DNA from: a virus
Lineage: Duplodnaviria > Heunggongvirae > Uroviricota > Caudoviricetes
Length of the DNA stretch: 30,712 nt
IMG/VR virus record: IMGVR_UViG_2872698443_000006
Strand: one strand, 5' to 3'
Position 1 is the first letter of the stretch, and every line of letters starts with the position of its first letter. The notes under the pieces are model-generated. The model saw nothing but the letters and a program-made list of their open reading frames with translations, made no database searches and was not told where the DNA came from. Shown in pieces: positions 1,958 through 30,712 of this stretch. A program made the translations under genes and the position numbers.

Positions 1958-4405
1958 TTAACCGTCATGCATCATGCTGGCACGGGCGCGCGCACGTTTA
2001 TCCCGCTCGTATTTTTCGAGCGCATCCTGTAACTGGCGGTCAAGCTGTGTCCCCGGCGCAGTACCACCCGTCAGGCTGATGTGATATTCGTTTTTACTCT
2101 GGTCCACATAAGAGCGGCCAGCCGGTGCCGTGACCGGCTGATAAGCCTGATAGCCTGCATAAGAGCTGGTCGCCGGAATATAACCACCGGTGCCATACGT
2201 GGCGGCATGAGTTCTGGCGGCGGTCTGGTCAAGTGTGTCTGACTCTTTGTTGATGACCCCGAGCTTTTCCAGTACCCAGTCAATACCGCTGCGCAGTTTG
2301 TTGAACGCATTAAGCGGCAGCATCAACGCGTCAGCCAGTGCCTGCCCGAACATGACACCCGTGTCACGACAACGGTTCAGGGTGTCCTGGGTGGCTTTAA
2401 CCGGAGCAATCAGGTTTGTAAACCACTGCCACGCGGCCTGTAACTTTTCGCCCAGCCAGTCAAACACCGGTTTCAGTGGCGTGAACAGTTCCCCCACCGG
2501 CGCAAATGCCGCTTTCAGCCCTTCCACCACACCGCCAAAGAATGCGCTGACAGGCTCCCAGTATTTACGGATAAGCAACGCCCCGGCGACAATTGCAGCC
2601 ACCACGGCCACAACCGGCCAGCTAATCGCCCCGATGGCCGTCATAACAGCACTGCCAACCGTCGTGAAGATTGCCCCCATTGCGCCTGCTGCCGCGATAA
2701 TGGCATTGATGCCGGTGATAACCGGCCAGGCTACAAGACCAATGGCACCGATGATGCCAATAAGCGCCAGCGCGCCACCGACAATGAGGCCGATGGTTGA
2801 CGCCAGTGATTTGTTTTTCTGGATCCAGCCGTCGAGTTTTAACACATACTTTGTGGCCGTCTGAGTGAGCTTACGCAGTGCGCCTTCCTGCTGGTCAAAC
2901 AGGTCTGTCCCCACCGCCTCATAAGCGGACTGAAACTCCTTAAAGTCACCGCCGAGGTTATCCTGCATGATTTTAACCAGCTCTTCCGTTTTACCGTCCG
3001 AGGCTTTCAGCGTGGCGGTCAGCTTATCCAGCTTTCCGCTTGCAGCCGCTGCCAGTAAAACGTTCGCTGATTTCAGGGCTTCCTCACCAAAAATGGTTTT
3101 AAGGTATTCCCCCTTCTGAGACGTTCCCAGCTTGTGTTTATCAAAGCTGGCCTGAATCTCTTTCAGAATGGTGAACAACGGACGCATATTTCCCTTTTTG
3201 TCCGAGGTTTTAACGCCAAGCTCTTTGAGTGCTTCCCATGCTTTCCCTGTCGGAGCCTGTAATCGGGTGACAACGGCACTACTACCAGTACCCGCCATTG
3301 ACCCCCTGATGTTATTGTCATGTAGCACACCGGTCATGGCTGCTGCCTGCTCAAGACTTACACCTGCCGTTCTTGCGACCGGGCCAAGATAAGTCAGTGC
3401 ATCACTGAGTCCCTGAAAATCAGCCGCCGACTTATTCATCGTTGCCGACAACACATCGCCCACATGGCTGACATCATCATTTGACAGTTGAAAAGATGCT
3501 TTAGTCCCCAGCAACAGTTGCGCGTTTTCTTCCATCGACCGCTGATTCGCCAGCGCCATATTCAGCGTGACCGGCGTTGCCGCCTGAATAGCCGCAGCAT
3601 CTCCACCCGCTTTCGCAATGATAATCTGCGCACCGGCCGCATCATCTGCCGAGGCGGCGGTGTTGTCACCGAGCTGGCGCGCCTGCCTGCGGAGTGCAGC
3701 CATTTCGGCGGAGTCTTTTGCCACTCCGAGCACAGCCTGTAATTCTGAGTTTTTCTGCGCAAACTCATAACCGGGCATCAGCAGCTTAACTCCGGCCATC
3801 GTTCCCGCCGCCGCAATCCCCACACCGGCAGAGCCCACCGAGGCCATATTTCCGGCCAGTTCCTTGCCTGCCTGATAACGCTGTTTTACTGCGTTAAGTT
3901 TTGCCTGTTGCGCACTGACACGCGCCAGCGCGTCACGCTGACGGTTAAGCTGTGCGGTGGTTTCACTGATACGGTTTTTCAGCCCCTGCTCATCATGTGC
4001 AAGATTGCGGGTATTAATTCCCACAGCGGCCAGTTCCCGCTGCTGGCGTTTAACGGAATCTGTCAGGCGGTTATATTTCGCCTGTAAGTCCTCCGCCGCA
4101 CGCTTTGCGGATTCCAGCACTTTCGCCTGAGCACGGGTCGGACGTTCGGTGTTTTTAAACTGTGTGGCAAGGGCTTCGGCCTCCTGCCGTGCCTTTTCAA
4201 GTGCATGACCAGTCACGGCGAGCTGTGCACTGGTCTTGCGGAATCCCTCAATACGGGATGCCTGACCGTTCAGCTCGCGCAGTGATTTTTGTGTTTCCCG
4301 GATATCCCCCGACAGCGATTTGCTCGCTGTGCGGATGGATTTAAACGGGCGGGATGCCTGGTCAACAGCCCTGAGCAATACCTGTAATTTTACATTGTTA
4401 CTCAT
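1958..4405 (-). CDS. T: Tail tape measure protein (gpT)
   Basis: 815 aa; coiled-coil-rich N-terminus, Gly/Ala-rich hydrophobic central region (GLIVGGALALIGIIGAIGL...), typical tape measure; ATG at 4403-4405. Confidence 0.9.
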   Translation of the reverse strand: MSNNVKLQVLLRAVDQASRPFKSIRTASKSLSGDIRETQKSLRELNGQASRIEGFRKTSAQLAVTGHALEKARQEAEALATQFKNTERPTRAQAKVLESAKRAAEDLQAKYNRLTDSVKRQQRELAAVGINTRNLAHDEQGLKNRISETTAQLNRQRDALARVSAQQAKLNAVKQRYQAGKELAGNMASVGSAGVGIAAAGTMAGVKLLMPGYEFAQKNSELQAVLGVAKDSAEMAALRRQARQLGDNTAASADDAAGAQIIIAKAGGDAAAIQAATPVTLNMALANQRSMEENAQLLLGTKASFQLSNDDVSHVGDVLSATMNKSAADFQGLSDALTYLGPVARTAGVSLEQAAAMTGVLHDNNIRGSMAGTGSSAVVTRLQAPTGKAWEALKELGVKTSDKKGNMRPLFTILKEIQASFDKHKLGTSQKGEYLKTIFGEEALKSANVLLAAAASGKLDKLTATLKASDGKTEELVKIMQDNLGGDFKEFQSAYEAVGTDLFDQQEGALRKLTQTATKYVLKLDGWIQKNKSLASTIGLIVGGALALIGIIGAIGLVAWPVITGINAIIAAAGAMGAIFTTVGSAVMTAIGAISWPVVAVVAAIVAGALLIRKYWEPVSAFFGGVVEGLKAAFAPVGELFTPLKPVFDWLGEKLQAAWQWFTNLIAPVKATQDTLNRCRDTGVMFGQALADALMLPLNAFNKLRSGIDWVLEKLGVINKESDTLDQTAARTHAATYGTGGYIPATSSYAGYQAYQPVTAPAGRSYVDQSKNEYHISLTGGTAPGTQLDRQLQDALEKYERDKRARARASMMHDG

Positions 4406-18990: not shown

Positions 18991-19163
18991 TGTCAGGAGT
19001 CCTGAATAGTGATTAGAGGAGTCACATGTCGGCATCAGTTTCCCGACGATGCGCATCCTCCGCCATCAGTCCCGGATGGCTTATCACTGACACAACAGCA
19101 CCTTAGCGAATCGCGGGACGCGACTCAGTAGCCTTGCCGTGTATTCATCACGGCGAGGTATTC
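18991..19163. promoter_or_regulatory. Divergent late promoter region (PO leftward, PP rightward), Ogr-dependent by analogy with P2
   Basis: 173-bp gap between divergent O and P starts. I looked for the P2 TGT-N12-ACA upstream element and found only partial dyads (GTCGG-N10-CCGAC at 19028-19047; ACAACA at 19089-19094), so exact promoter positions are not assigned. Confidence 0.4.
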
Positions 19164-20936
19164 ATGACCATCACCACAGACACCACTCTTTTACACGACC
19201 CGCGTCGTCAGGCGGCGCTGCTGTACTGGCAGGGGTTTTCCGTGCCGCAGATTGCCGCCATGTTGCAGATGAAACGCCCGACGGTGCAGAGCTGGAAACA
19301 GCGCGACGGCTGGGACAGCGTTGCCCCCATCAGCCGTGTCGAAATGAGTCTGGAAGCGCGGCTGACCCAGCTCATCATCAAACCGCAGAAAACCGGCGGT
19401 GACTTCAAGGAAATTGACCTGCTCGGACGCCAGATTGAACGACTGGCGCGGGTCAACCGCTACAGTCAGACCGGCAACGAGGCAGACCTTAATCCGAACG
19501 TCGCTAACCGCAACAAAGGCGGGCGTCGCAAACCGAAAAAGAATTTTTTCAGTGACGAGGCCATCGAAAAGCTGGAGCAGATTTTCTTTGAGCAGTCTTT
19601 CGAATATCAGTTGCACTGGTATCGCGCCGGACTTGAGCACCGCATCCGCGACATCCTGAAATCCCGCCAGATTGGCGCGACGTTTTATTTTTCCCGCGAG
19701 GCGCTGCTGCGCGCCCTGAAAACCGGTCATAACCAGATTTTTCTGTCGGCCAGTAAAACGCAGGCGTATGTGTTCCGCGAATACATCATCGCCTTTGCCC
19801 GTCTGGTTGACGTTGACCTGACCGGTGACCCGATTGTCCTGAGCAATAACGGCGCAAAACTGATTTTTCTCGGCACCAACTCCAACACCGCACAGAGCCA
19901 TAACGGCGACCTGTACGTCGACGAGATTTTCTGGATCCCGAATTTTCAGGTACTGCGTAAGGTGGCATCAGGTATGGCCTCACAGAGCCACCTGCGCTCG
20001 ACCTATTTCTCCACCCCGTCCACGCTGGCGCACGACGCCTATCCGTTCTGGTCGGGTGAACTGTTCAACCGGGGACGCGCCAGTGCCGCTGAACGCGTGG
20101 AAATCGACGTCAGTCATAACGCCCTTGCCGGTGGGCTTCTCTGTGCGGACGGCCAGTGGCGACAGATTGTCACCATTGAGGACGCGCTGAAAGGCGGCTG
20201 CACGCTGTTCGACATTGAGCAGCTCAAACGTGAAAACAGCGCCGACGATTTTAAAAACCTGTTCATGTGTGAATTTGTTGACGACAAGGCGTCGGTGTTC
20301 CCGTTCGAGGAGCTGCAACGCTGCATGGTCGACACGCTGGAAGAATGGGAAGACTATGCGCCGTTTGCCGCCAATCCGTTCGGCTCCCGCCCGGTATGGA
20401 TTGGTTACGACCCGTCACACCGTGGCGACAGCGCCGGATGCGTGGTGCTGGCACCGCCGGTGGTGGCCGGTGGCAAATTCAGGATCCTTGAGCGTCACCA
20501 GTGGAAAGGCATGGACTTTGCCACCCAGGCAGAATCCATCCGCAAACTCACCGAAAAATATAACGTTGAATACATCGGGATTGATGCCACCGGCCTCGGT
20601 GTCGGTGTGTTCCAGCTCGTGCGCTCGTTCTATCCCGCCGCTCGCGATATCCGCTACACGCCGGAAATGAAAACCGCAATGGTGCTCAAGGCAAAAGACG
20701 TTATCCGCCGTGGCTGTCTGGAATATGACGTCAGCGCCACCGACATCACCAGCTCGTTTATGGCTATCCGCAAGACCATGACCAGCAGCGGACGCAGCGC
20801 CACCTATGAGGCCAGCCGCAGCGAGGAAGCCAGCCACGCCGACCTCGCCTGGGCGACCATGCACGCCCTGTTAAATGAGCCACTCACCGCCGGTATCAGC
20901 ACCCCGCTGACATCCACCATTCTGGAGTTTTACTGA
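19164..20936 (+). CDS. P: Terminase large (ATPase) subunit P
   Basis: 590 aa from ATG 19164 (MTITTDTTLLHDPRRQAALLYWQGFSVPQIAAMLQ...), GAGG RBS; the ORF-track start at 19134 is a TTG extension. Confidence 0.9.
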   Translation: MTITTDTTLLHDPRRQAALLYWQGFSVPQIAAMLQMKRPTVQSWKQRDGWDSVAPISRVEMSLEARLTQLIIKPQKTGGDFKEIDLLGRQIERLARVNRYSQTGNEADLNPNVANRNKGGRRKPKKNFFSDEAIEKLEQIFFEQSFEYQLHWYRAGLEHRIRDILKSRQIGATFYFSREALLRALKTGHNQIFLSASKTQAYVFREYIIAFARLVDVDLTGDPIVLSNNGAKLIFLGTNSNTAQSHNGDLYVDEIFWIPNFQVLRKVASGMASQSHLRSTYFSTPSTLAHDAYPFWSGELFNRGRASAAERVEIDVSHNALAGGLLCADGQWRQIVTIEDALKGGCTLFDIEQLKRENSADDFKNLFMCEFVDDKASVFPFEELQRCMVDTLEEWEDYAPFAANPFGSRPVWIGYDPSHRGDSAGCVVLAPPVVAGGKFRILERHQWKGMDFATQAESIRKLTEKYNVEYIGIDATGLGVGVFQLVRSFYPAARDIRYTPEMKTAMVLKAKDVIRRGCLEYDVSATDITSSFMAIRKTMTSSGRSATYEASRSEEASHADLAWATMHALLNEPLTAGISTPLTSTILEFY

Positions 20937-21970
20937 TGAGCAAGAAAAAAGGGAAAACACCGCAACCTGCGGCAAAAACAATGACCGCCAGCGCCCCGAA
21001 AATGGAGGCATTCACCTTTGGTGAGCCGGTGCCGGTACTCGACCGCCGTGACATTCTGGATTACGTCGAGTGCATCAGTAACGGCAGATGGTATGAGCCA
21101 CCGGTCAGCTTTACCGGTCTGGCAAAAAGCCTGCGTGCTGCCGTACATCACAGCTCACCGATTTACGTCAAACGTAATATTCTGGCCTCGACATTTATCC
21201 CGCATCCGTGGCTTTCCCAGCAGGATTTCAGCCGCTTTGCGCTGGATTTTCTGGTGTTCGGTAATGCGTTTCTGGAAAAGCGTTACAGCACCACCGGTAA
21301 GGTCATCAGACTGGAAACCTCACCGGCAAAATATACCCGCCGTGGCGTGGAGGAGGATGTTTACTGGTGGGTGCCGTCCTTCAACGAGCCGACACCTTTC
21401 GCGCCCGGCTCCGTGTTTCATCTGCTGGAGCCGGATATTAATCAGGAGCTGTACGGTCTGCCGGAATATCTCAGCGCCCTTAACTCTGCCTGGCTGAATG
21501 AGTCGGCCACGCTGTTCCGCCGCAAGTATTACGAAAACGGCGCTCATGCCGGATATATCATGTACGTCACTGATGCCGTGCAGGATCGCAACGATATCGA
21601 AATGCTTCGCGAAAACATGGTCAAGTCGAAAGGCCGCAACAACTTTAAAAACCTGTTTCTCTATGCCCCGCAGGGGAAAGCTGACGGCATTAAAATTATC
21701 CCGCTCAGTGAAGTGGCAACGAAGGACGATTTTTTTAATATCAAAAAAGCCAGCGCCGCTGACCTGCTGGACGCGCACCGCATCCCCTTTCAGTTGATGG
21801 GCGGCAAGCCGGAGAACGTCGGGTCGCTGGGTGATATTGAGAAAGTGGCAAAGGTCTTTGTCCGCAATGAGCTTATCCCGTTACAGGACAGGATCCGCGA
21901 GATAAACGGCTGGCTCGGTCAGGAGGTCATCCGCTTTAAAAACTACTCACTGGACACTGACAACGGCTGA
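20936..21970 (+). CDS. Q: Portal (capsid portal vertex) protein Q
   Basis: 344 aa MSKKKGKTPQPAAKTMTASAPKMEAFTFGEPVPVLDRRDILDY...; ATG overlaps the P stop (TGATG). Confidence 0.9.
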   Translation: MSKKKGKTPQPAAKTMTASAPKMEAFTFGEPVPVLDRRDILDYVECISNGRWYEPPVSFTGLAKSLRAAVHHSSPIYVKRNILASTFIPHPWLSQQDFSRFALDFLVFGNAFLEKRYSTTGKVIRLETSPAKYTRRGVEEDVYWWVPSFNEPTPFAPGSVFHLLEPDINQELYGLPEYLSALNSAWLNESATLFRRKYYENGAHAGYIMYVTDAVQDRNDIEMLRENMVKSKGRNNFKNLFLYAPQGKADGIKIIPLSEVATKDDFFNIKKASAADLLDAHRIPFQLMGGKPENVGSLGDIEKVAKVFVRNELIPLQDRIREINGWLGQEVIRFKNYSLDTDNG

Positions 21971-21975
21971 ACATC

Positions 21976-21997
21976 GCCGCCTGCGGGCGGCTTTTTT
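21976..21997 (+). terminator. Rho-independent terminator downstream of Q
   Basis: GCCGCC-TGCG-GGCGGC stem-loop followed by TTTTTT, 6 nt after the Q stop. Confidence 0.75.
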
Positions 21998-22140
21998 ACA
22001 CCCCCGTCATCACGCCCTCACACGCTCATCACCGCACAAAAAATCCCGCAGACACACCAGCGCCCCGGCGCATAATCTAAACGCCATTACGACGCGCTGA
22101 GACGCTGAAAAAATAAAATCAGCACCACCGCCAGCGCGCA

Positions 22141-22159
22141 GTGCTTTCCCCGCCTCGCC
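22141..22159. other. cos site (19-nt cohesive end of the P2 type)
   Basis: GTGCTTTCCCCGCCTCGCC is the exact reverse complement of GGCGAGGCGGGGAAAGCAC, which I recall as the P2 cohesive-end sequence; located just beyond Q as expected. Confidence 0.8.
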
Positions 22160-22301
22160 CGCCCGCTTCATGGGTCGGTTTTAATGCAGTTGCATGAACA
22201 CGTCGAAACAGCACCAGTCCTGAACTAAAACAACCAATGTGAATGCTGCTTGCGCATGCAAATCCATGCATATTGTGTATGCATGATAACTGATTAGGTA
22301 A

Positions 22302-23000
22302 TTAATTCAGTTTTTTATACCGTGACCACCCTGATTTAACTGAGTTACGTTTAGATTCTTCCTCTATGCTTTGATACTCACTCTGTAATATTGAGAGAAA
22401 GTCTTTCCGCATCTTTAACTTGTATTGTTTCATTGCTGTTTCAATGATGAAATGCCCTTTTTTAAAGGATGGTCGACCTTCATATTTCAACCCTGACAAT
22501 AGAAATCTCAATCTAGGGTTTGACTCCATCCCAAATGCAAACTCCCACATATCGCTTATATTACATAGCGTATAAGGTATTGGCTTACCTCCCTGTTTAA
22601 GGTTATTAATCTTTAATGGTTCCTTAACATCACTAAACTTCATATAAACATTAACAATAGTACACTTCACACCGTGTAAATTTGTCACTTTGATATTAGC
22701 CAAGTCTTGCGATGAAAGCTTATCTGCTTTTTTTGCCGTAGAGGTCGTATATATAGGCGCAAAAACAACGTCAACTTTCTCTTTGCCTGACATCATCGCA
22801 TAATAACTTGTAAATAATGAAACCCCCACAGCCGCGAGAGTAGCCAATCCTGACACCCACCCTCCTAGCATTGTCCAAAATGCGACCTTGCTATTATTTT
22901 CACTCTCGCCCCATGCCCATTGAACTCCACCCAACACAAAACCAAATGCGAACATAAACAAGCAAAGACATATTATTAAAGCTATCCCACAATACTTCAT
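22302..23000 (-). CDS. Cargo gene: uncharacterised membrane-anchored protein (two N-terminal TM helices plus about 160-aa soluble domain)
   Basis: 232 aa; ATG 22998-23000 with AAGGA 9 nt upstream; TM1 IALIICLCLFMFAFGFVLGGV, TM2 FWTMLGGWVSGLATLAAVGVSLF; AT-rich codon usage unlike the rest of the prophage; no family recognised. Confidence 0.7.
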   Translation of the reverse strand: MKYCGIALIICLCLFMFAFGFVLGGVQWAWGESENNSKVAFWTMLGGWVSGLATLAAVGVSLFTSYYAMMSGKEKVDVVFAPIYTTSTAKKADKLSSQDLANIKVTNLHGVKCTIVNVYMKFSDVKEPLKINNLKQGGKPIPYTLCNISDMWEFAFGMESNPRLRFLLSGLKYEGRPSFKKGHFIIETAMKQYKLKMRKDFLSILQSEYQSIEEESKRNSVKSGWSRYKKLN

Positions 23001-23204
23001 GAAACAAATCCTTGATATAGAAAATCACAATATTTTCACACAACATTTAAACGAAATTTAAATCATCAAGCACTCTAATTACAAACAAAACAACGCACAA
23101 CACATCAAAAAAAATCATGTAAAACAAAAAAAATAGACATGCTTTAAGATCATCTTTCAATGCCACCGACACAATATCAAACTTCAGTATCGGTGGCATC
23201 ACCA

Positions 23205-23936
23205 TCAATTATTTAGTATCGAAACTATTTCACCCGTTTTCACATTAACACGCGCTGCTATTGTTTGCTTCACGACACCACCATAGGCATTAGTACCGCG
23301 AAATGTGGTTTTCACAATGGCGTGAGGGTCTTTATTCAGGATTAAATGATACACTGTTGACACATGTTTATAAGATGAATCATCGTTCATATTCTCTTTA
23401 ATTAACTTTTCCAATGGTCGATAAGAACCATCCCAACCACTAAAATTACTCTGAAATGTATCAAGGTTGATTTTATTGTTTAGTGATTGCGGATCTTTTT
23501 CATAATCATTAAAGCACCATCCAAGAACATCACCGAGTTTCAACTCATCATCTTTGGTAAAAGTATATTCACTCATGCAGGCATAAAATGCATCTGATGC
23601 GGTGACTGGCACTTCCTTAAAATCAATGTAACTATTTACAATATCGTGTCGAGTTTTCTTTGGCTCGTTCCGATATTCCTTGAGTGTTTTTCCACCATAT
23701 TCGAATGTTTTTTGGACTTGGTGTTCTGCAACGGTTGATGTTTCAGTTTTAGCAACTGGCTGGCTTTTTTCTGTTGGATAGAGTATTGAACCAATTATGC
23801 TCAATACAAAACCTCCTCCGAGATAAACCGCACTTGCACGTTTACGGTTTGGCATCCGCACCAGTGATGGTTTGATTAACCCGATGAAAAAAGCAACGAA
23901 AAAAGCGAGTGATAGAAAAGCGATTACAGTATCCAT
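23205..23936 (-). CDS. Cargo gene: uncharacterised membrane-anchored protein (two N-terminal TM helices plus about 190-aa soluble domain)
   Basis: 243 aa from ATG 23934-23936 (AAAGGA 5 nt upstream; the ORF-track start at 23960 is GTG); TM1 TVIAFLSLAFFVAFFIGLI, TM2 AVYLGGGFVLSIIGSILY; AT-rich; no family recognised. Confidence 0.7.
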   Translation of the reverse strand: MDTVIAFLSLAFFVAFFIGLIKPSLVRMPNRKRASAVYLGGGFVLSIIGSILYPTEKSQPVAKTETSTVAEHQVQKTFEYGGKTLKEYRNEPKKTRHDIVNSYIDFKEVPVTASDAFYACMSEYTFTKDDELKLGDVLGWCFNDYEKDPQSLNNKINLDTFQSNFSGWDGSYRPLEKLIKENMNDDSSYKHVSTVYHLILNKDPHAIVKTTFRGTNAYGGVVKQTIAARVNVKTGEIVSILNN

Positions 23937-24165
23937 AGCTATCCTTTTTGCATCATCCACATAAAAAATCGACCTTATGTTAGCAACAGGAAGCTTACTT
24001 TTGAATATTTGTAAGTTGTTAGCTTTAGCTCTCCGAGCTAACTCCTTTCAACCGTCAAAAACCAGCACCAACGCAGTAAAAATATTACTGTCAACTAACG
24101 CCTCGCTTCGCTCGTTGTTCAACCCCGCCAGCCCTGAAAACAAGTTTCACGACTGGCGGCGTTCT

Positions 24166-24372
24166 CTATCGTCTGCGTGGTGGTGGCATAACTCTGGATT
24201 GACCGATATGGTTAAACCGCCCGTAATTATCCCGGACTATTTCGGCACACCCGACCAGCTCGTCAGGCGTCAGATTTTCGTTAACCATAATCTGCTGTAG
24301 ACGGTGAACAATAGCCATCAGCTTGATATTTTTAGTTTTATGTTGCGGTATCTCGCCTGGTATTCTGTGCAT
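24166..24372 (-). CDS. Possible small protein (68 aa) coupled to the upstream ASCH-like gene
   Basis: ATG at 24370-24372 overlaps the TAA of the upstream gene (TAATG); no recognisable motif; could be non-coding. Confidence 0.3.
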   Translation of the reverse strand: MHRIPGEIPQHKTKNIKLMAIVHRLQQIMVNENLTPDELVGCAEIVRDNYGRFNHIGQSRVMPPPRRR

Positions 24373-24827
24373 TATCCAAGCCACCCGTTTTGCTGTGCAC
24401 GCTCCATCTGTTCATCTGAATAGTTCCATGCTCCATCCGTGGCAACCATTGCCCCGCCAGACATCCCCGTCTCTGGTTCATACATAACAGAAAGGCCGAG
24501 CTGATGCATAATTTCATGATTAATTCTGAATACCAGACCACGCTCACTAAGTTCTTTCCAGTTCACAATCTCATATGCGCCTGTATTAAGCAGCTCAATA
24601 CTTAGCAAGACATAATCTTCCAGCCAGTCTGACAGGTCAGTAACATCTGTTATCCGGGCTTCAACCTTTCGCCCCGTATACACACCCTGTACCCATTCAT
24701 GCAAAATCAACGTGTCCCCGCGCTCATAATTACGGTCATTTTTCCGAAACTCTGCGCGTTTCTTTCCTTCCAGCACAAGGTCAAAATATTTGGCGTGCAG
24801 CTTTACCTCGTGAATTTTTGCCATCAT
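24372..24827 (-). CDS. ASCH/PUA-like (DUF3850-like) domain protein with C-terminal HExxH motif
   Basis: About 151 aa from the ATG pair at 24825-24827 / 24822-24824, overlapping the A stop (ATGATGG). N-terminus KIHEVKLHAKYFDLVLEGKKRAEFRKNDRNYERGDTLILHEW fits the ASCH-like pattern as I recall it; C-terminal FRINHEIMHQLGL contains HExxH. Confidence 0.6.
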   Translation of the reverse strand: MMAKIHEVKLHAKYFDLVLEGKKRAEFRKNDRNYERGDTLILHEWVQGVYTGRKVEARITDVTDLSDWLEDYVLLSIELLNTGAYEIVNWKELSERGLVFRINHEIMHQLGLSVMYEPETGMSGGAMVATDGAWNYSDEQMERAQQNGWLG

Positions 24828-27109
24828 TTCCACTCCATTACTGTTGAGAATCCCGGCCACTCATCAGCGACCGGATACGTGAATTTTTTTCCGTCATAAT
24901 TTACGGTCGCGCCACGCGCCAGCGCCTCAAGCTCCCATCGCTGCGGCCTGATACCGTTCTGAGCAAGGTCAACGCGGATACGGGTAATTTGCATTCTTTC
25001 CGACCGGGTCAGTCTGGCCGATGGTGCAATTTCATGTAGTTTTAACGGGCTTCCGTTTCTCTGCTGACGGTTTGGCGTTCGCAGGTCGTGTTTTAATGCG
25101 CCCCTGAGCGCCCTCACGACCTCCGGTTCATTCCATTCAATAACTCCGTCATCAACCAGATTAAGCACGGCTGCGGCGTGCTCAGAAGGTGTGGGAGCCG
25201 GTAACGAAGTATCACCACCGGTGAGCTTTCCACAGTTATTGACAGGACTCCGAGGCGCGGCGATGCCGCTTTTTAAAGTCAGAGGCTCAACGACCGGAAC
25301 TTTCGGCACAATGCGCCAGTCCGTCGTTCTGGTGATATGAATATGACGCGCGCCGAGATGCGGCGCGTAAATGCCGACCACTCTCTCGACTTCTTCCTCG
25401 TACTCGTTAACTTCATCCGACGGACTACGGGCGACCCTGACAGTCTGACAATCGCGCGGGACATTTGCCCCACCCTGCGCGCTGATATACAACGCAAAAT
25501 CACCACTGTCTGCGGCGGCGCGTGCAGCCTCGACGCGCTCGTCAAACTCATCAGCAATGCTGACGCCGCGAGGCAATTTGCGTAGTTCACGGTAAGCCCC
25601 CATTGTCGGCAGACCAACCGTTTTAAATTGTGGGATGCGCCACGTTGACGCCCATGCGGTAACAGCCGCAGCAGTGTCTTTCAGCGGTCTGCCGGTATCG
25701 TTATCGAGCTGACCATCCAGTGCATAGCCATCGATGTTTTTTGAGATGTATTTCGCGATATACCCCGCAGCACCGCCCTGGTTAAGGTGTTTTGCCTGAA
25801 AACGGTTTCGCGCGGCTCCTCTTTCGTCGCCATCCTCTTTGAGCGCATAGCGACGCATGATTTCGATAATCTGGTTACGCTGGCGTGGATTACAAAAAAG
25901 CATCATATGCCAGTGCGGCGTTCCGTCGTGGTGTGGCTCGACGACACGCAAACCGTAGACCTGTAAATCATTATCCTTGAATGCCGTGCGCATCAGGCTC
26001 CAGATATGGCAGAGATAACGCTGCGCATCCTTTGGATTAAATGCCTCATCGTTCCAGCCGTGATTTAGCTGGACGGTTTTACTTTCGCCTTTTCCGACCT
26101 GACGTGTCGGGTGATACTTTGACGGCGCGGTAAGCGTGATAAACATCCCCACATCACCCTCTGCGGCGGCGTAACGCTCAATACCGGCAATGGTGTTCAT
26201 CAGCTCCATCCGGCGAATTTCAGGATTAGAAATACTGCCCATCACCTTACTGATAAGGTCGATGCGCTCGCCGGTTTCCCTGTTTTCAAGGTCACACGAT
26301 TTAAGAAATTCCAGATTTGCCTGGCGGCGTGCACGCACATCACGAATGGCATGTTTACTGGCATAAGGAGAACGGTCTTTATTCACCTCCCCGACAGCAA
26401 TCAGTAACGCCTCATGCCAGCGCATACGCTGGCCTTTGAGCTGATGAGTCCACCACTCATCGTTAAACAGACGGGCAATGGCAGAATATGCCTGCCTCGT
26501 GGTCATCTGTCCTTTACGGTATTTTTTCCAGTAAAGCGGGGAAATATTGAAAGCACGTGCAGCGCCAGCAACATGACCATAGAGGTGAGCCTGCGCCTCA
26601 TCCGTAAACAGCGATTCTTTTTCGCCATGTGCATCCACCCAGGCATCGCTGAGTTCCTCATACATCATGAAAAGCTGCGATGAGATACGGGCGGCAAACT
26701 TTTTCAGCTCCTTGTCATTCATTCCCGGCAGGCGCGCATAGTGGTCACGCTCTGCCAGAAACAGCAACGACGCGTCGGTGTTCATTTCATGGCGCTGATT
26801 CACACGCTCAATGCGCGGCCATAAACGACGCTGAAAAGTGGATGTGAGGAAATAAAACCCGTGCACCGGGCTTTTATTGCGCCGGATGTAGTCATAGCGT
26901 GAAGTAAACAGCGAGCGCAAAAAGTAAGGCAGGCGGTTAATCGTGGATAAAACACCTTGCACCTGACGCATCTCGTCACGTGTAAGGGGTCTTTCGCGCC
27001 CGACGGCCTCGCGTGGCGCGTTCCATGCATAAGCACCGGTAAACATCTTACCGGTGCCTGCGGCAAATGCTGACGGAGGGACAAAACGCCCGGAGGCTTT
27101 AACGGCCAT
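24824..27109 (-). CDS. A: Replication initiation protein A (rolling-circle nickase)
   Basis: 761 aa from ATG 27107-27109 (MAVKASGRFVPPSAFAAGTGKMF...); the ORF-track start at 27151 is a TTG extension; size and N-terminus match my recollection of P2 gpA. Confidence 0.9.
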   Translation of the reverse strand: MAVKASGRFVPPSAFAAGTGKMFTGAYAWNAPREAVGRERPLTRDEMRQVQGVLSTINRLPYFLRSLFTSRYDYIRRNKSPVHGFYFLTSTFQRRLWPRIERVNQRHEMNTDASLLFLAERDHYARLPGMNDKELKKFAARISSQLFMMYEELSDAWVDAHGEKESLFTDEAQAHLYGHVAGAARAFNISPLYWKKYRKGQMTTRQAYSAIARLFNDEWWTHQLKGQRMRWHEALLIAVGEVNKDRSPYASKHAIRDVRARRQANLEFLKSCDLENRETGERIDLISKVMGSISNPEIRRMELMNTIAGIERYAAAEGDVGMFITLTAPSKYHPTRQVGKGESKTVQLNHGWNDEAFNPKDAQRYLCHIWSLMRTAFKDNDLQVYGLRVVEPHHDGTPHWHMMLFCNPRQRNQIIEIMRRYALKEDGDERGAARNRFQAKHLNQGGAAGYIAKYISKNIDGYALDGQLDNDTGRPLKDTAAAVTAWASTWRIPQFKTVGLPTMGAYRELRKLPRGVSIADEFDERVEAARAAADSGDFALYISAQGGANVPRDCQTVRVARSPSDEVNEYEEEVERVVGIYAPHLGARHIHITRTTDWRIVPKVPVVEPLTLKSGIAAPRSPVNNCGKLTGGDTSLPAPTPSEHAAAVLNLVDDGVIEWNEPEVVRALRGALKHDLRTPNRQQRNGSPLKLHEIAPSARLTRSERMQITRIRVDLAQNGIRPQRWELEALARGATVNYDGKKFTYPVADEWPGFSTVMEWK

Positions 27110-27374
27110 ATGAGCCAAAAGCCTCTGAACAACGCTTGCTGAGTTGCTCAACCTGCACGTTTAAATCAGCAAAAGACTTTGCGCTTCCGGTCAGAATATC
27201 GTGATGCATCAGGCCTGAAACGAGCTGGCTTAATTTCGGGTAATAACCAACCACCGCCAGCCATTCCTGACCGGCGTTTTTACCGCTTTCCGCTCTCTTT
27301 TTCTCGTGGAGAATAAACTGAAAGCTGTCACTGGTAACGACATAACGTTCGCCAATTTCAATACGAATACTCAT
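27099..27374 (-). CDS. Small early protein (P2 orf83-like position), unknown function
   Basis: 91 aa, ATG 27372-27374 overlapping the upstream stop (ATGA). Confidence 0.55.
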   Translation of the reverse strand: MSIRIEIGERYVVTSDSFQFILHEKKRAESGKNAGQEWLAVVGYYPKLSQLVSGLMHHDILTGSAKSFADLNVQVEQLSKRCSEAFGSYGR

Positions 27375-27595
27375 GCCGTTCTCCGGTAATGTTTGTTTTT
27401 TGCTTCAAAGACTGACTGACAGGAAACACAACGCGTGGCTGACGGGTAAGCCGCACGACGGGCAGCAGGTATTGGCGCGTCACACTCTTCGCAAACCAGC
27501 GCAGAAGCACCGCAATGTTTTACCCTTGCCGCGTTAATCTGGCGCTCCAGTAATTCAGCCTGTTGTTCCTGAATAAAATCTACGTTGTCCGGCAT
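27371..27595 (-). CDS. TraR/DksA-family C4 zinc-finger protein
   Basis: 74 aa with CGASALVCEECDAPIPAARRAAYPSATRCVSCQ (C-x4-C-x2-C ... C-x2-C), typical of phage TraR-like proteins. Confidence 0.7.
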   Translation of the reverse strand: MPDNVDFIQEQQAELLERQINAARVKHCGASALVCEECDAPIPAARRAAYPSATRCVSCQSVFEAKNKHYRRTA

Positions 27596-27897
27596 TACCA
27601 GTTCCTTTTGTCGTTCAGTTTTTTAAATTCATCAGCGCAATAGCTGGCGATTTCTGTCGTTAATTTCGTCAGTTCATCCACGGAGGAAATTTGCTTGTGA
27701 AATACAGCGCGTTTAACAAGTAAATTGACCACATCAGACAGGAGGTTTAATTCACTCTGATAAATCGCGATAACAGATTCAGTTATTTCGCGTTTTTCTT
27801 TATCAAGACCAAGTTGAATAAGAGACAAATCGCCATTTTTCATAACGGCGATTTTTAAGGCATTGTTCAGTAAAACAACTGAACGAGAACAGGACAT
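27595..27897 (-). CDS. Small early protein, unknown function
   Basis: 100 aa from ATG 27895-27897 (ATGA overlap with the upstream gene). Confidence 0.55.
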   Translation of the reverse strand: MSCSRSVVLLNNALKIAVMKNGDLSLIQLGLDKEKREITESVIAIYQSELNLLSDVVNLLVKRAVFHKQISSVDELTKLTTEIASYCADEFKKLNDKRNW

Positions 27898-28121
27898 CAA
27901 AGCACCTCCCCGCGAGACAATCCGATGTTGTGAAATTTTTCCGACTCCTGACTGAGCAGCTCGACTATCTCCACGCGGGATAACTCCGCCTTTGTGATGT
28001 GGCGAATCATGGCGTCAAGATGAGAAGAAAAGCGCGTCGCTGCATCGGCCTGTGCTTCGGTTCTGGCCTGTTGCAGCAGTAATGCGTATTTACCGCACTG
28101 ATTTTCAGAAACTGTATGCAT
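27897..28121 (-). CDS. Small early protein, unknown function
   Basis: 74 aa from ATG 28119-28121 with GGAGAAAG RBS; the ORF-track start is TTG. Confidence 0.5.
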
Positions 28122-28184
28122 GACTTTCTCCAGGCAAAAAGAAGCCCCGCACAATTAAGTGCGTTAAAAACTCTGGTTAATTAC

Positions 28185-28685
28185 TTAATGCAGATATTGC
28201 TCTGGTTTTACCGATGTCAGAATTGTCGGTGCATACTCAAACAGACTGAATAATTCACGTAATGCACGGAATAAAGCATCACGCCAGTAACATGATTCTT
28301 CATTAATTCGCCAGTATGGCTGATTGAATTCTTTTTCTGTCAATCTGGCATGCATAAATAAAGTACGCCGCTGACTGACTGTTAAAAAACTAATATATGC
28401 ATACTCACTTGCACCGACCTGACGGCGTTTTGAGAATGCCCCACGCAATTCATCAATTGCACAAACCAGCCGTTCACGTTCGACGTCGTTCATTTCTTCA
28501 AAACGCATCGTTGCGTGACGTTGTTTTAACTGCGCATGGAAGCAAACCGTTAACCGTTCGCGTTCCATCATCTGATTATAATAATCACATGTCTCCTGCC
28601 AGCGAGGGACGGCCAGATGCTTACCAATTATCCGGCGCATAGCTGCTGGCTGTTTTTCGACGAGATTAAGTGTCATCACTGTCAT
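28185..28685 (-). CDS. B: Replication protein B (helicase loader-like)
   Basis: 166 aa MTVMTLNLVEKQPAAMRRIIGKHLAVPRWQ...; same length as P2 gpB as I recall. Confidence 0.8.
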   Translation of the reverse strand: MTVMTLNLVEKQPAAMRRIIGKHLAVPRWQETCDYYNQMMERERLTVCFHAQLKQRHATMRFEEMNDVERERLVCAIDELRGAFSKRRQVGASEYAYISFLTVSQRRTLFMHARLTEKEFNQPYWRINEESCYWRDALFRALRELFSLFEYAPTILTSVKPEQYLH

Positions 28686-28862: not shown

Positions 28863-29219
28863 TTAAGCCGCACGGCCATGTCTTGATTTGCTATAACTAA
28901 TGCGATTTTTCCAGTCGTGCCATTCTGATGGAGCTTCATCGACTAGCTGTGCTGCGTACTTGTCCCACTCACGACGATTAATCCATAACTCAGCATGACC
29001 TCCCGGCTTTAATGGGTCTGTCATGTAAAAGGCTGGCAGCTTTCCTGCTTTCGCCATTTCAGCCACCGCTCGTGGTGTCTTGCCGATGTAAAGTGCAAAA
29101 CCTTCTTTCGACAGCAAATCTGATGGTGCCGCCGCCAATTTAACGGAATCACGCTTTGCTTTTGTGAGAACGGAGAGTTCTTGTCTTGTCTCGTCAGAAA
29201 TTTCAGATCCGACATTCAT
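28863..29219 (-). CDS. cox: Cox-like excisionase / early-operon repressor (HTH)
   Basis: 118 aa, first gene of the leftward early operon, AGGAGA RBS; GKLPAFYMTDPLKPGGHAELWINRREW resembles the Cox-family motif (GKLP..MTDP...W) as I recall it; longer than P2 Cox. Confidence 0.65.
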   Translation of the reverse strand: MNVGSEISDETRQELSVLTKAKRDSVKLAAAPSDLLSKEGFALYIGKTPRAVAEMAKAGKLPAFYMTDPLKPGGHAELWINRREWDKYAAQLVDEAPSEWHDWKNRISYSKSRHGRAA

Positions 29220-29323
29220 TTTGCTATTCTCCTAATTGGCCCCACTAACTAAAGCTAGTTGGAGTTGACTAGAGTTAGATGTGGAATATCACAACGGATT
29301 AAAAATAAGAGATCTGATTCATT
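29220..29323. promoter_or_regulatory. Immunity switch region: divergent Pe (cox) and Pc (C) promoters with putative operator repeats
   Basis: Intergenic between divergent cox and C; TTGACT at 29265-29270 with a possible -10 TATCAC 16 bp downstream (Pc candidate); direct repeats AGTTGGA / AGTTAGA at 29258-29264 and 29273-29279. Confidence 0.45.
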
Positions 29324-29623
29324 ATGTCAATTGAGATTCGTGAAAAGCTAAAACTTATCCGTGAGTCTGAACGGCTCAAGAAGAAGGAAGTAGCTGAAAT
29401 GACAGGTATTAATTACGTTACGTATGTAGGGTACGAAAATGGGAAATCATCTATTTCACATGATGCAGTGGTGCGGCTTCTAAAACATCCAAGATTCCGT
29501 AAATACCGTGACTGGTTCATGTTTGATGAAACTGATCCCGCAGCTGGTCAAATAGCCCCAGCTCTCGCACACATTGGGCAAGACTCAACAACCTTGCACC
29601 ACTCAGATCAAAAGATTGGCTGA
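29324..29623 (+). CDS. C: Immunity repressor C
   Basis: 99 aa; ...GQIAPALAHIGQDSTT... C-terminus and HTH region (LKKKEVAEMTGINYVTYVGYENGK) closely resemble P2 C as I recall it. Confidence 0.85.
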   Translation: MSIEIREKLKLIRESERLKKKEVAEMTGINYVTYVGYENGKSSISHDAVVRLLKHPRFRKYRDWFMFDETDPAAGQIAPALAHIGQDSTTLHHSDQKIG

Positions 29624-29716
29624 CGATTTATTCAGCTTATGTGTGTAGTAAATGTGCGAAAGAAAATTGTATTAATTTTCAAGCAGTAGAGGTAAGCAGC
29701 ATCATCGGAGGGCTTT

Positions 29717-30712
29717 ATGTCTATTAAAAAGCTCGATGATGGTCGTTATGAAGTGGACGTCAGGCCGCAGGGTGCAGATGGGAAACGTATCAGGCGGAAA
29801 TTTAAAACTAAAGGTGAAGCTCAGGCATTCGAGCGTCATGTCCTGGTTAACTACCACAACAAAGAGTGGATAGAGAAACCAGCCGATCGCCGAACTCTTA
29901 CCGAGTTGTTAGGCCGATGGTGGATATATCACGGAAAATCGCATGAGCGGGGGGATATTGAACGGGGGCGTTTAACGACAATAATCGCCAAATTTGCAGA
30001 AATGGGAGTGTCCAGAGCTGACCAGCTAACAAAGAAAACGATAACTGATTATCGCGTTGTAATGATGAACGATGGCCTAAAACCAGCCAGCGTAAATCGG
30101 CATCTGGCAATAATGAGCGGAATGTTCACCAAATTAATTGACGCCGGTGAATACCACTCTCATAACCCGTTCCGTGAGGTTAAGCGGTTACGTGAAGCTG
30201 TTACGGAAATGGCTTTTTTGTCCAGTGAAGAGATTACGCGGCTGTTATCCATGCTCGATGGTGATGAATTAAATGCAACTCTAGTCTGCCTTTCTACTGG
30301 TGGACGCTGGAGTGAAGTGTCTAATTTAAAAGCTGAACACATCATTAACCAGATGGTTACGTTTATGAAAACTAAAAACGGAAAGCGCAGGACAATTCCC
30401 GTTTCGCAGGACCTGATTAAACGGATCAAGACCAAAAACTCAGGCAGGCTTTTTAATGCCAGTTACTACAAAGTGCGCAACGCTCTCAGGGAAGTAAAAC
30501 CCGATTTACCTGACGGACAGGCAGTGCATGTTTTGAGGCATACATTTGCCACACATTTTATAATGAATGGAGGTAACATAATCACATTGCAGCGCATCCT
30601 GGGTCATTCTAACATTCAGCAAACTATGACCTACGCACACTTTGCACCGGATTTCTTACAAGATGCTGTGACTCTTAACCCGGTGTCAGGAATGTCCATA
30701 ATGCGTCCATAA
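29717..30712 (+). CDS. int: Tyrosine recombinase (phage integrase)
   Basis: 331 aa, GGAGGG RBS; C-terminal catalytic motifs HVLRHTFATH ... ILGHSNIQQTMTYAHF (R...HxxR...Y); stop is the last codon of the window. Confidence 0.9.
   Translation: MSIKKLDDGRYEVDVRPQGADGKRIRRKFKTKGEAQAFERHVLVNYHNKEWIEKPADRRTLTELLGRWWIYHGKSHERGDIERGRLTTIIAKFAEMGVSRADQLTKKTITDYRVVMMNDGLKPASVNRHLAIMSGMFTKLIDAGEYHSHNPFREVKRLREAVTEMAFLSSEEITRLLSMLDGDELNATLVCLSTGGRWSEVSNLKAEHIINQMVTFMKTKNGKRRTIPVSQDLIKRIKTKNSGRLFNASYYKVRNALREVKPDLPDGQAVHVLRHTFATHFIMNGGNIITLQRILGHSNIQQTMTYAHFAPDFLQDAVTLNPVSGMSIMRP

Follow-up and report, generated by a model that had tools for sequence, protein, structure and literature searches.

Proteins of the inner membrane and periplasm that stop DNA entry are encoded by several phages, and SieA of P22 and Imm and Sp of T4 are small proteins of this kind. 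To our knowledge very few exclusion mechanisms of phages with contractile tails are understood. Phage P2 encodes Old, an ABC-ATPase/TOPRIM nuclease, and Tin, a cytoplasmic protein. The genes for these two proteins have a phage-exclusion role and lie between cos and replication gene A, an interval that is a known hotspot of anti-phage genes and that also receives non-defensive cargo such as partition systems and cytolethal distending toxin (Rousset et al., 2022, PMC9122126). In the GenBank record of coliphage 186 the last gene before cos is orf97, the second gene of the LexA-controlled SOS operon p95-tum-t95a-orf97-t95b, and the feature note on this gene reads 'expression from plasmid blocks 186 infection'. 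The 186 p95 operon and Brumby et al. (1996) are cited in PMC5322425. The present analysis concerns the cos-to-A interval of the virus record IMGVR_UViG_2872698443_000006, a stretch of 30,712 nucleotides (nt) referred to as the window, and in particular two genes on its minus strand, p243 and p232, named after the number of residues that they encode. The best explanation, held with moderate confidence, is that these are two independent single-gene cassettes, p243 acting in superinfection exclusion and p232 providing a second exclusion or abortive function.

Comparison of the p243 protein (gene 23205-23936) with 186 Orf97 (NP_052294) gave 79% identity over 243/243 residues with an E value of 7e-136, and the protein was assigned to phrog_3403 (E 3e-145). 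A tblastn search of the phage collection using p243 returned 33 records, phage 186 among them. The two genes agree in length and orientation, and p243 is positioned as in 186, between gene A and cos with transcription directed toward cos. The DNA identity between the window and 186 was 74% across 23207-23986. Within this stretch a 50-nt leader (23937-23986), which is homologous to the 186 DNA upstream of orf97, aligned with the final codons of tum and the degenerate t95a terminator, and the start codon of p243 was placed at the ATG at 23936, not at the GTG at 23960. The retention of the tum 3' end and the t95a remnant indicates that the p243 module was derived from a 186-type SOS operon. The surroundings differ from those in 186, since the backbone is of P2 type, the gene follows the open reading frames (ORFs) orf91 and a 68-residue ORF, and an additional cargo gene comes next. 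No homologue of tum or DinI was detected in the window, no LexA box was found near p243 or in the island, and the 186 p95 promoter was absent from the locus, so that p243 does not belong to a LexA-repressed tum-orf97 operon. As the window has no tum and no LexA box near the gene, the module appears to have been transferred to the P2-type backbone from a phage of the 186 type, minus its SOS control.

The initial annotation had assigned both cargo proteins to unknown families. This does not apply to p243, the orthologue of Orf97, and both genes already have PHROG families. The locus is likewise already catalogued, being 99.7% identical to a sequenced phage and having both genes in the list of Rousset et al. 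(2022, PMC9122126; Table S5B), where p243 is system 12, with 210 occurrences, and p232 is system 30, each with the label '2 TM'. A p243-like gene was present in 84 of 5426 complete Escherichia coli genomes (~1.5%), and p243 was found in the gpA-Q hotspot of prophages from at least eight genera, often as the sole cargo gene.

The cargo ORFs could also be decaying or non-functional remnants, as their AT-rich DNA looks foreign and some relatives contain an IS5 insertion or truncated copies, one locus (L005) retaining only a fragment of a p232-family gene. This is contradicted by the selection and conservation data and has very little to recommend it. Comparison of p243 with five other E. coli alleles gave a ratio of non-synonymous to synonymous substitution rates (dN/dS) of 0.09-0.11, indicating strong purifying selection, and its length is constant at 243 residues in many Enterobacterales. 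Intact members of the p232 family occur in many genera, and the AlphaFold2 models of both proteins are confident.

The model of p243, with a predicted local distance difference test score (pLDDT) of 82, contained two N-terminal helices, a disordered linker at residues 56-73, a helical domain at ~85-155 and an alpha+beta domain at ~170-243. The first transmembrane (TM) helix spans residues ~3-22 and the second ~36-54, and they are connected by a strongly basic loop, RMPNRKR, that contains conserved residues. Two N-terminal hydrophobic helices were seen in both cargo proteins, as expected from their initial annotation as membrane-anchored products of AT-rich genes. Two cysteines of p243, C120 and C141, are invariant among homologues down to 27% identity. 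In an Oxalobacter homologue the p243-type domain follows a lipoprotein signal peptide (LAGC), and that of Xenorhabdus homologues is preceded by a cytoplasmic zinc ribbon and one TM helix. The basic loop, the invariant cysteine pair, these two homologue architectures and the periplasmic structural neighbours given below suggest a position in the periplasm, and the C-terminal domain of p243 most likely faces that compartment.

The alpha+beta domain of p243 is cystatin-like, and the closest structural neighbours of the helical domain were HdeA, HdeB, Rap1a and Tai4. Together with YmgD, these are small periplasmic helical proteins that share 6-16% identity with p243 and gave no profile match, whereas p243 is membrane-anchored and has the additional cystatin-like domain. 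The resemblance to the HdeA and Rap1a type is a lead rather than proof of a shared function. It can be used to argue that the cargo serves lysogenic conversion or the phage itself, as a periplasmic chaperone, as immunity to cell-wall hydrolases of a type VI secretion system (T6SS) or of bacteriocin type, or as an aid to the cycle of the induced phage, given that HdeA and HdeB are acid-stress chaperones and Rap1a and Tai4 confer immunity to T6SS amidases. The expression of 186 orf97 only during SOS induction would suit such a role, and part of the hotspot cargo is known to be non-defensive (PMC9122126). We consider a role of this kind rather unlikely, because the phenotype recorded for 186 Orf97 is a block of infection and the p232 family was seen only in the phage hotspot.

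Searches for similarity to characterised families were carried out with sequence profiles and with folds. Pfam, PADLOC, NCBIfam and PHROGs were run on all six candidate ORFs, and the two cargo proteins matched unnamed PHROGs only; the same scans of 38 members of the Orf97 family and 52 members of the p232 family gave nothing. PADLOC, which the initial annotation had proposed as a check for known defence systems, gave no match for p243 or p232. There were zero matches to p243 or p232 among PDB sequence profiles, even at an E value of 10. Characterised superinfection exclusion proteins (SieA, SieB, Imm, Sp, Cor and others) showed no similarity of sequence or fold to either protein.

Superinfection exclusion remains the most likely function of the cargo genes. 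Exclusion at the stage of DNA entry fits p243 because the protein is phage-encoded, anchored in the inner membrane, periplasm-facing and, in its 186 orthologue, infection-blocking when expressed. In the proposed mechanism cassette exchange would have brought both genes into the P2 cos-to-A hotspot. The two helices of p243 would anchor it in the inner membrane and display a domain of ~190 residues, probably disulfide-bonded, in the periplasm. As we infer it, p243 would act against incoming phages of the P2/186 type, and perhaps others, and the block would be imposed after adsorption, as the tail passes DNA through the periplasm and inner membrane. In this it would resemble SieA, Imm and Sp, although it shares no sequence or fold with them. 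P2 tin and old occupy the same hotspot and have an exclusion role, and their proteins are unrelated to those described here.

The initial annotation had singled out the interval as a probable site for an undescribed defence or exclusion function. Exclusion is plausible, but the function is not undescribed for p243, as its 186 orthologue was already annotated as blocking infection. Several points weigh against the exclusion proposal. The only evidence of function is the single-line GenBank note on the plasmid-expressed 186 protein, so that a defence role for p243 draws on inference and one old phenotype note, and an overexpressed membrane protein can block infection non-specifically. The 186 gene is LexA-repressed, and is thus no classical defence expressed in the lysogen; its natural role may lie in keeping a secondary phage out of the induced cell and not in protecting the lysogen. 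In the P2-type context p243 would have to be expressed with neither a LexA box nor a convincing promoter. The topologies of p243 and p232 are predictions from charge rules and homologue architectures, and the function proposed for p232 is conjectural.

Apart from the GenBank note, the literature search on the function of Orf97 yielded only references to Brumby et al. (1996), with no worked-out mechanism. Orf97 is not mentioned in a 2024 review of superinfection exclusion, and the WP and YP accessions occurred in no main text. The sequences of p243 and p232 are not among the systems that were cloned and tested by Rousset et al. (Table S2, PMC9122126). The 'Three hypothetical proteins' system, validated against P1 in the same study, was considered as a possible match and rejected, as neither protein sequence is in Table S2.

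Were it true that the Orf97 family blocks the entry of P2/186-type phages from the periplasm, a common one-gene example found in many Enterobacterales would be added to the few known, and a role would be given to a gene of the classical 186 SOS operon that has lacked an explanation since 1996. A wider proposal is that the Orf97 family, with relatives in Vibrio, Xenorhabdus and others, forms a widespread periplasm-acting exclusion class of P2/186-like phages whose disulfide-bonded, HdeA/T6SS-immunity-like domain neutralises a periplasmic step in contractile-tail DNA delivery, with the p232 family, often found beside it, as a polymorphic partner at the cytoplasmic face that adds a further layer or specificity. 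This we put forward as speculative and improbable as it stands. The general picture of P2 hotspots is already published and is not altered, and a positive result would not surprise specialists.

The second cargo gene, p232 (22302-23000, minus strand, 232 residues), occupies the cos-proximal cargo slot. Its product matched phrog_16957 only. A word-indexed search with p232 identified 19 relatives at 28-51% identity, and a profile search carried out exhaustively on 1.84 billion representatives raised the number to 130, of which 29 had E values below 1e-10. The AlphaFold2 model shows a hairpin of two TM helices, an immunoglobulin (Ig)/ApaG-like beta-sandwich and, at the C terminus, a long helix. 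The second TM helix, GGWVSGxATxxAV, is rich in small residues and very conserved, more so than any other part of the family. In relatives with a single TM helix the N-terminal tail is neutral or acidic and a cluster of lysine and arginine residues lies past the helix, suggesting that the beta-sandwich is probably cytoplasmic. Fold searches with p232 returned generic beta-sandwiches and uncharacterised phage proteins only (the latter from Foldseek against BFVD), and no member of the family was matched by Pfam or PADLOC. In outline p232, in which an all-beta domain comes after two N-terminal TM helices, is similar to Cap15 of the cyclic-oligonucleotide-based antiphage signalling system (CBASS), which has two TM helices and a beta-barrel.

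Judged from its sequence relatives, p232 is one allele of a small, polymorphic family that has no name. Sequence types of SieA sharing under 30% identity occupy one locus (PMC10883804), and the alleles of the p232 family resemble them in their divergence at one locus. The family was found in the gpA-Q hotspot of P2/186-like prophages in 8/8 contexts examined (the window, L004, BIS20, L032, L034, L037, L041 and L043), and this restriction to the hotspot gives fair grounds for regarding it as a candidate new small defence gene. In the mechanism that we favour the conserved small-residue helix would hold p232 in the inner membrane with the beta-sandwich on the cytoplasmic side, where the protein would provide a separate second exclusion or abortive function at the cytoplasmic face of the membrane.

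The properties of p232 also bear on whether one or both cargo proteins act by abortive infection or by permeabilising the membrane, as effectors that would kill the infected cell or arrest it. In known defence systems most TM proteins are suicide effectors (PMC9122126), the GGWVSGxATxxAV helix would fit oligomerisation in the membrane, and the soluble domain of p232, if cytoplasmic, could sense phage components. Against this, no sensor, cyclase or nucleotide-binding domain is associated with the genes, the large domain of p243 is predicted to be periplasmic and would be ill-suited to sensing replication, and the stable carriage and strong purifying selection are accompanied by no linked antitoxin. 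An effector role is accordingly regarded as unlikely.

Two further loci were noted in the survey of the p232 family. At 3894-5645 of L037 (metagenome contig k141_3026; also L038 and L039) a p232-family gene is found just downstream of a gene with a SocA_Panacea domain and a 191-residue gene; this pair resembles a toxin-antitoxin pair, and the arrangement looks like several cargo modules stacked in one hotspot. In Rahnella inusitata (L017, 8953-9510) a 185-residue ORF is located downstream of the orf97 homologue, beyond an intervening ORF of 575 residues. It has one N-terminal TM helix followed by sequence of beta-rich appearance, an outline like that of the single-TM p232 members, and the hidden Markov model of the p232 family gave no match to it.

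The distribution of the two genes was used to examine whether they form one system. In 20/20 species-representative loci and in 186 the p243 gene occurs with no p232-family gene, and in other E. coli prophages (L028-L031) the genes that come after it are unrelated and encode 260, 198, 429 and 224 residues. Conversely, the p232 family occurs with no orf97 in L032, L034, L037 and L041, which are prophages of Serratia, Citrobacter and Enterobacter and, in the case of L037, the metagenome contig. A recombination breakpoint is present between the genes at the stop codon of p243. Since each gene occurs alone, a breakpoint separates them and the spacer moves with p232, they were treated as two cassettes, and Rousset et al. 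(2022, PMC9122126) likewise count two separate systems, 12 and 30. An obligate pair was rejected, as either gene is found alone elsewhere.

A looser partnership, in which a periplasmic sensor or blocker (p243) is combined with a polymorphic cytoplasmic-face partner (p232) that supplies specificity or the effector, draws on the order and the direct or near adjacency of the two genes, which are kept with at least four very different alleles: that of the window, those of L004 (28% identical) and BIS20 (~30%), and that of L043. In addition, p243-like genes are adjoined by one or other of two p232-family alleles in 36 of the 84 E. coli genomes that have them, and the pairing looks non-random given that each gene is present in only ~1% of P2 loci in the catalogue of Rousset et al. 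(PMC9122126). These co-occurrence counts are, however, inflated by clonal lineages. In L043 another gene intervenes between the two homologues, in the window they are separated by a spacer of ~205 nt with a strong hairpin as well as by the breakpoint, and the 186 phenotype was recorded for orf97 by itself. With the solitary occurrences of each gene described above, a single two-gene system is considered unlikely, the case for independent cassettes being the stronger.

The spacer between p243 and p232 (23001-23204, minus strand) is ~205-215 nt long, and its predicted fold gave a z score of -2.9. It contains a hairpin at 23159-23200 (minus strand) with a 14-bp stem (AUGCCACCGAUACU/…GUGUCGGUGGCAU), which begins 5 nt beyond the stop codon of p243 and lacks a U-tract. 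This hairpin may end or stabilise the orf97 transcript. The breakpoint relative to the other prophages that carry orf97 is at 23204-23230, and the spacer has therefore been swapped along with p232. Presumably it also carries a putative promoter for p232. A promoter scan found no site above threshold upstream of p232 or p243, in the spacer or in the 108-nt joint that precedes the p243 leader.

The extent of the exchanged DNA was determined from base composition and from homology. The guanine-cytosine (GC) content was 0.378 for the p232 gene, 0.378 for the p243 gene and 0.304 for the spacer that separates them, giving 0.375 for 22160-23960 compared with 0.526 for the whole window and 0.53-0.58 for the flanking genes P, Q and A. 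Among 1.8-kb blocks of the window (mean 0.529, standard deviation 0.052) the minimum, 0.368, was in the block starting at 22251, ~3 standard deviations below the mean, in agreement with the low-GC block that had been noticed between cos and gene A. The GC content of orf91 (0.464) and the 68-residue ORF was 0.46-0.47.

Breakpoints were mapped by BLASTN of the window against 15 related loci, which revealed sharp losses of homology at ~22200, ~23207 and 24093. On the outer side the conserved cos-proximal flank extends to 22195-22201, where homology is lost in all compared P2/186-like loci. Prophages with p243 but not p232 part from the window at 23204-23230, and P2, Wphi and other relatives match it again from 24093. 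The slot holds different genes in L003, L004 and L028-L031, among otherwise near-identical prophages. From these comparisons the variable island comprises about 22200-24093 only, and the AT-rich part is, as judged by its breakpoints, exchanged cargo. The initial annotation had extended the island to 24823 and treated four ORFs as one unit of horizontally acquired cargo. Acquisition is supported for ~22200-24093 by the breakpoints, and does not hold for orf91 and the 68-residue ORF, which belong to the P2 backbone beyond the point at which homology to P2 and Wphi returns; p232 and p243 are moreover separable. A repeat search detected no direct repeats inside the island of the window, and an Rfam scan gave only a chance match below threshold.

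At the inner side of the island the 108-nt joint (23987-24094, minus strand) separates the p243 leader from the backbone. It is specific to P2-type carriers of the orf97 module, being present in L004 and L028-L031 and absent from 186-type loci and from P2. The joint holds a TTGACA motif and the palindrome CAGTAA-N5-TTACTG, features that make it a possible promoter or operator.

The joint is followed by a conserved hairpin element of ~70 nt (24095-24163, minus strand) that marks the inner edge of the hotspot and is present as a single copy in the window. Copies that are 85-90% identical are found after orf97 in 186, BIS20, Kluyvera and L043, and after the 68-residue gene in P2. The element forms a 17-bp stem in which two pairs show compensatory change. 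Its placement differs between the two groups of phages, being just after the last gene of the early operon in the P2 type and just after orf97 in the 186 type. The copies in other loci were located at L026 4845-4913, L027 3246-3315, L006 6741-6809, L043 3582-3650, L003 ~3436-3505, L004 1547-1611 and L031 2434-2481. A second copy, diverged in sequence, is found downstream of the orf97 module in both L004 and L031, so that direct copies flank the module. The element is likely to be a recombination anchor or a structure at the end of the early operon. The locus thus illustrates how the hotspot is built, with sharp cassette breakpoints and with the hairpin element at the inner boundary and, in some prophages, on both sides of the orf97 module.

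The element is adjoined by the 68-residue ORF (24166-24372, minus strand), which had been proposed as a possible small ORF and is a PGAP-annotated coding sequence that belongs to phrog_11386 (E 3.5e-41). It is 95% identical in P2. The next gene, orf91 (24372-24824, minus strand, 150 residues), is 98% identical in P2. One base of the orf91 start codon is also part of the gene A stop codon, and the start codon of the 68-residue ORF overlaps that of the orf91 stop in the same way, by one base. The early-operon order is thus gene A, orf91 and the 68-residue ORF, and the identity to P2, the GC content of 0.46-0.47 and the start/stop overlaps assign both ORFs to the early operon and not to the cargo. 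The initial description of orf91 as an ASCH-like gene with an HExxH motif was borne out by three Pfam matches, to DUF3850 (PF12961; 64.9 bits, 7.9e-18, cut-off 22.9), ASCH (PF04266; 42.8 bits, 9.1e-11, cut-off 21.2) and DUF7415 (PF24187; 51 bits, 1.7e-13, cut-off 27), and by the sequence HEIMH at residues 103-107. This motif is located inside the DUF7415 domain of ~50 residues and no peptidase family was matched; all of the homologues retrieved are at least 69% identical, which makes its conservation uninformative. The best PADLOC match of orf91 had an E value of just 0.024.

Some annotations of these two genes differ among related records. The P24A7b record has a plus-strand ORF, gp45 (99-107 residues, phrog_33524; 23977-24300), over the minus-strand 68-residue ORF. 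In locus L009 the identity is 83% in the minus-strand frame compared with 53.5% for the plus-strand ORF, and the 68-residue ORF is therefore probably the true gene. In Wphi the C-terminal DUF7415 part of orf91 is called as a separate 64-residue ORF, gp92 (P0150), and the orf91 of E. coli isolateD (L030, 3625-4076) bears a frameshift in its annotation. Disruption of the gene seems to be tolerated, consistent with a non-essential role.

On its sequence the window as a whole is assigned to a P2-like prophage. The 3.1 kb around the island were 99.7% identical to Peduovirus P24A7b (NC_049390), and five complete E. coli chromosomes gave 99.1-99.5% over the same 3.1 kb. The outer edge of the hotspot is set by the P2-type cos cohesive-end sequence GGCGAGGCGGGGAAAGCAC (22141-22159, minus strand), an exact 19-nt match to P2 that occurs once in the window and in 0/100 shuffles; the genome record of P24A7b terminates at window position 22160. 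On the cos side lie the genes for terminase P (19134-20936) and portal Q (20936-21970), both on the plus strand, and on the inner side, outside the island, lies replication gene A (24824-27151, minus strand), which is annotated as 'replication endonuclease' and is 98% identical to P2 gpA. Searches of the interval between cos and gene A using Pfam, PADLOC, PHROGs and the annotation found no homologue of tin or old, as the initial annotation had stated, and its recognition of the interval as a known variable hotspot of P2 agrees with the published survey (PMC9122126).

In E. coli E92 and E94 (NZ_CP119734 and NZ_CP119740), which are bovine isolates, the region corresponding to window positions 21900-25000 contains the island at 97.7% identity, split by an IS5-family transposase that adds ~1 kb. 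Elsewhere in the window the sole other stretches with a GC content below 0.44 are 27500-28500 and 29000-29750 (0.40-0.44), in the part of the prophage that holds the early, immunity and integrase regions.

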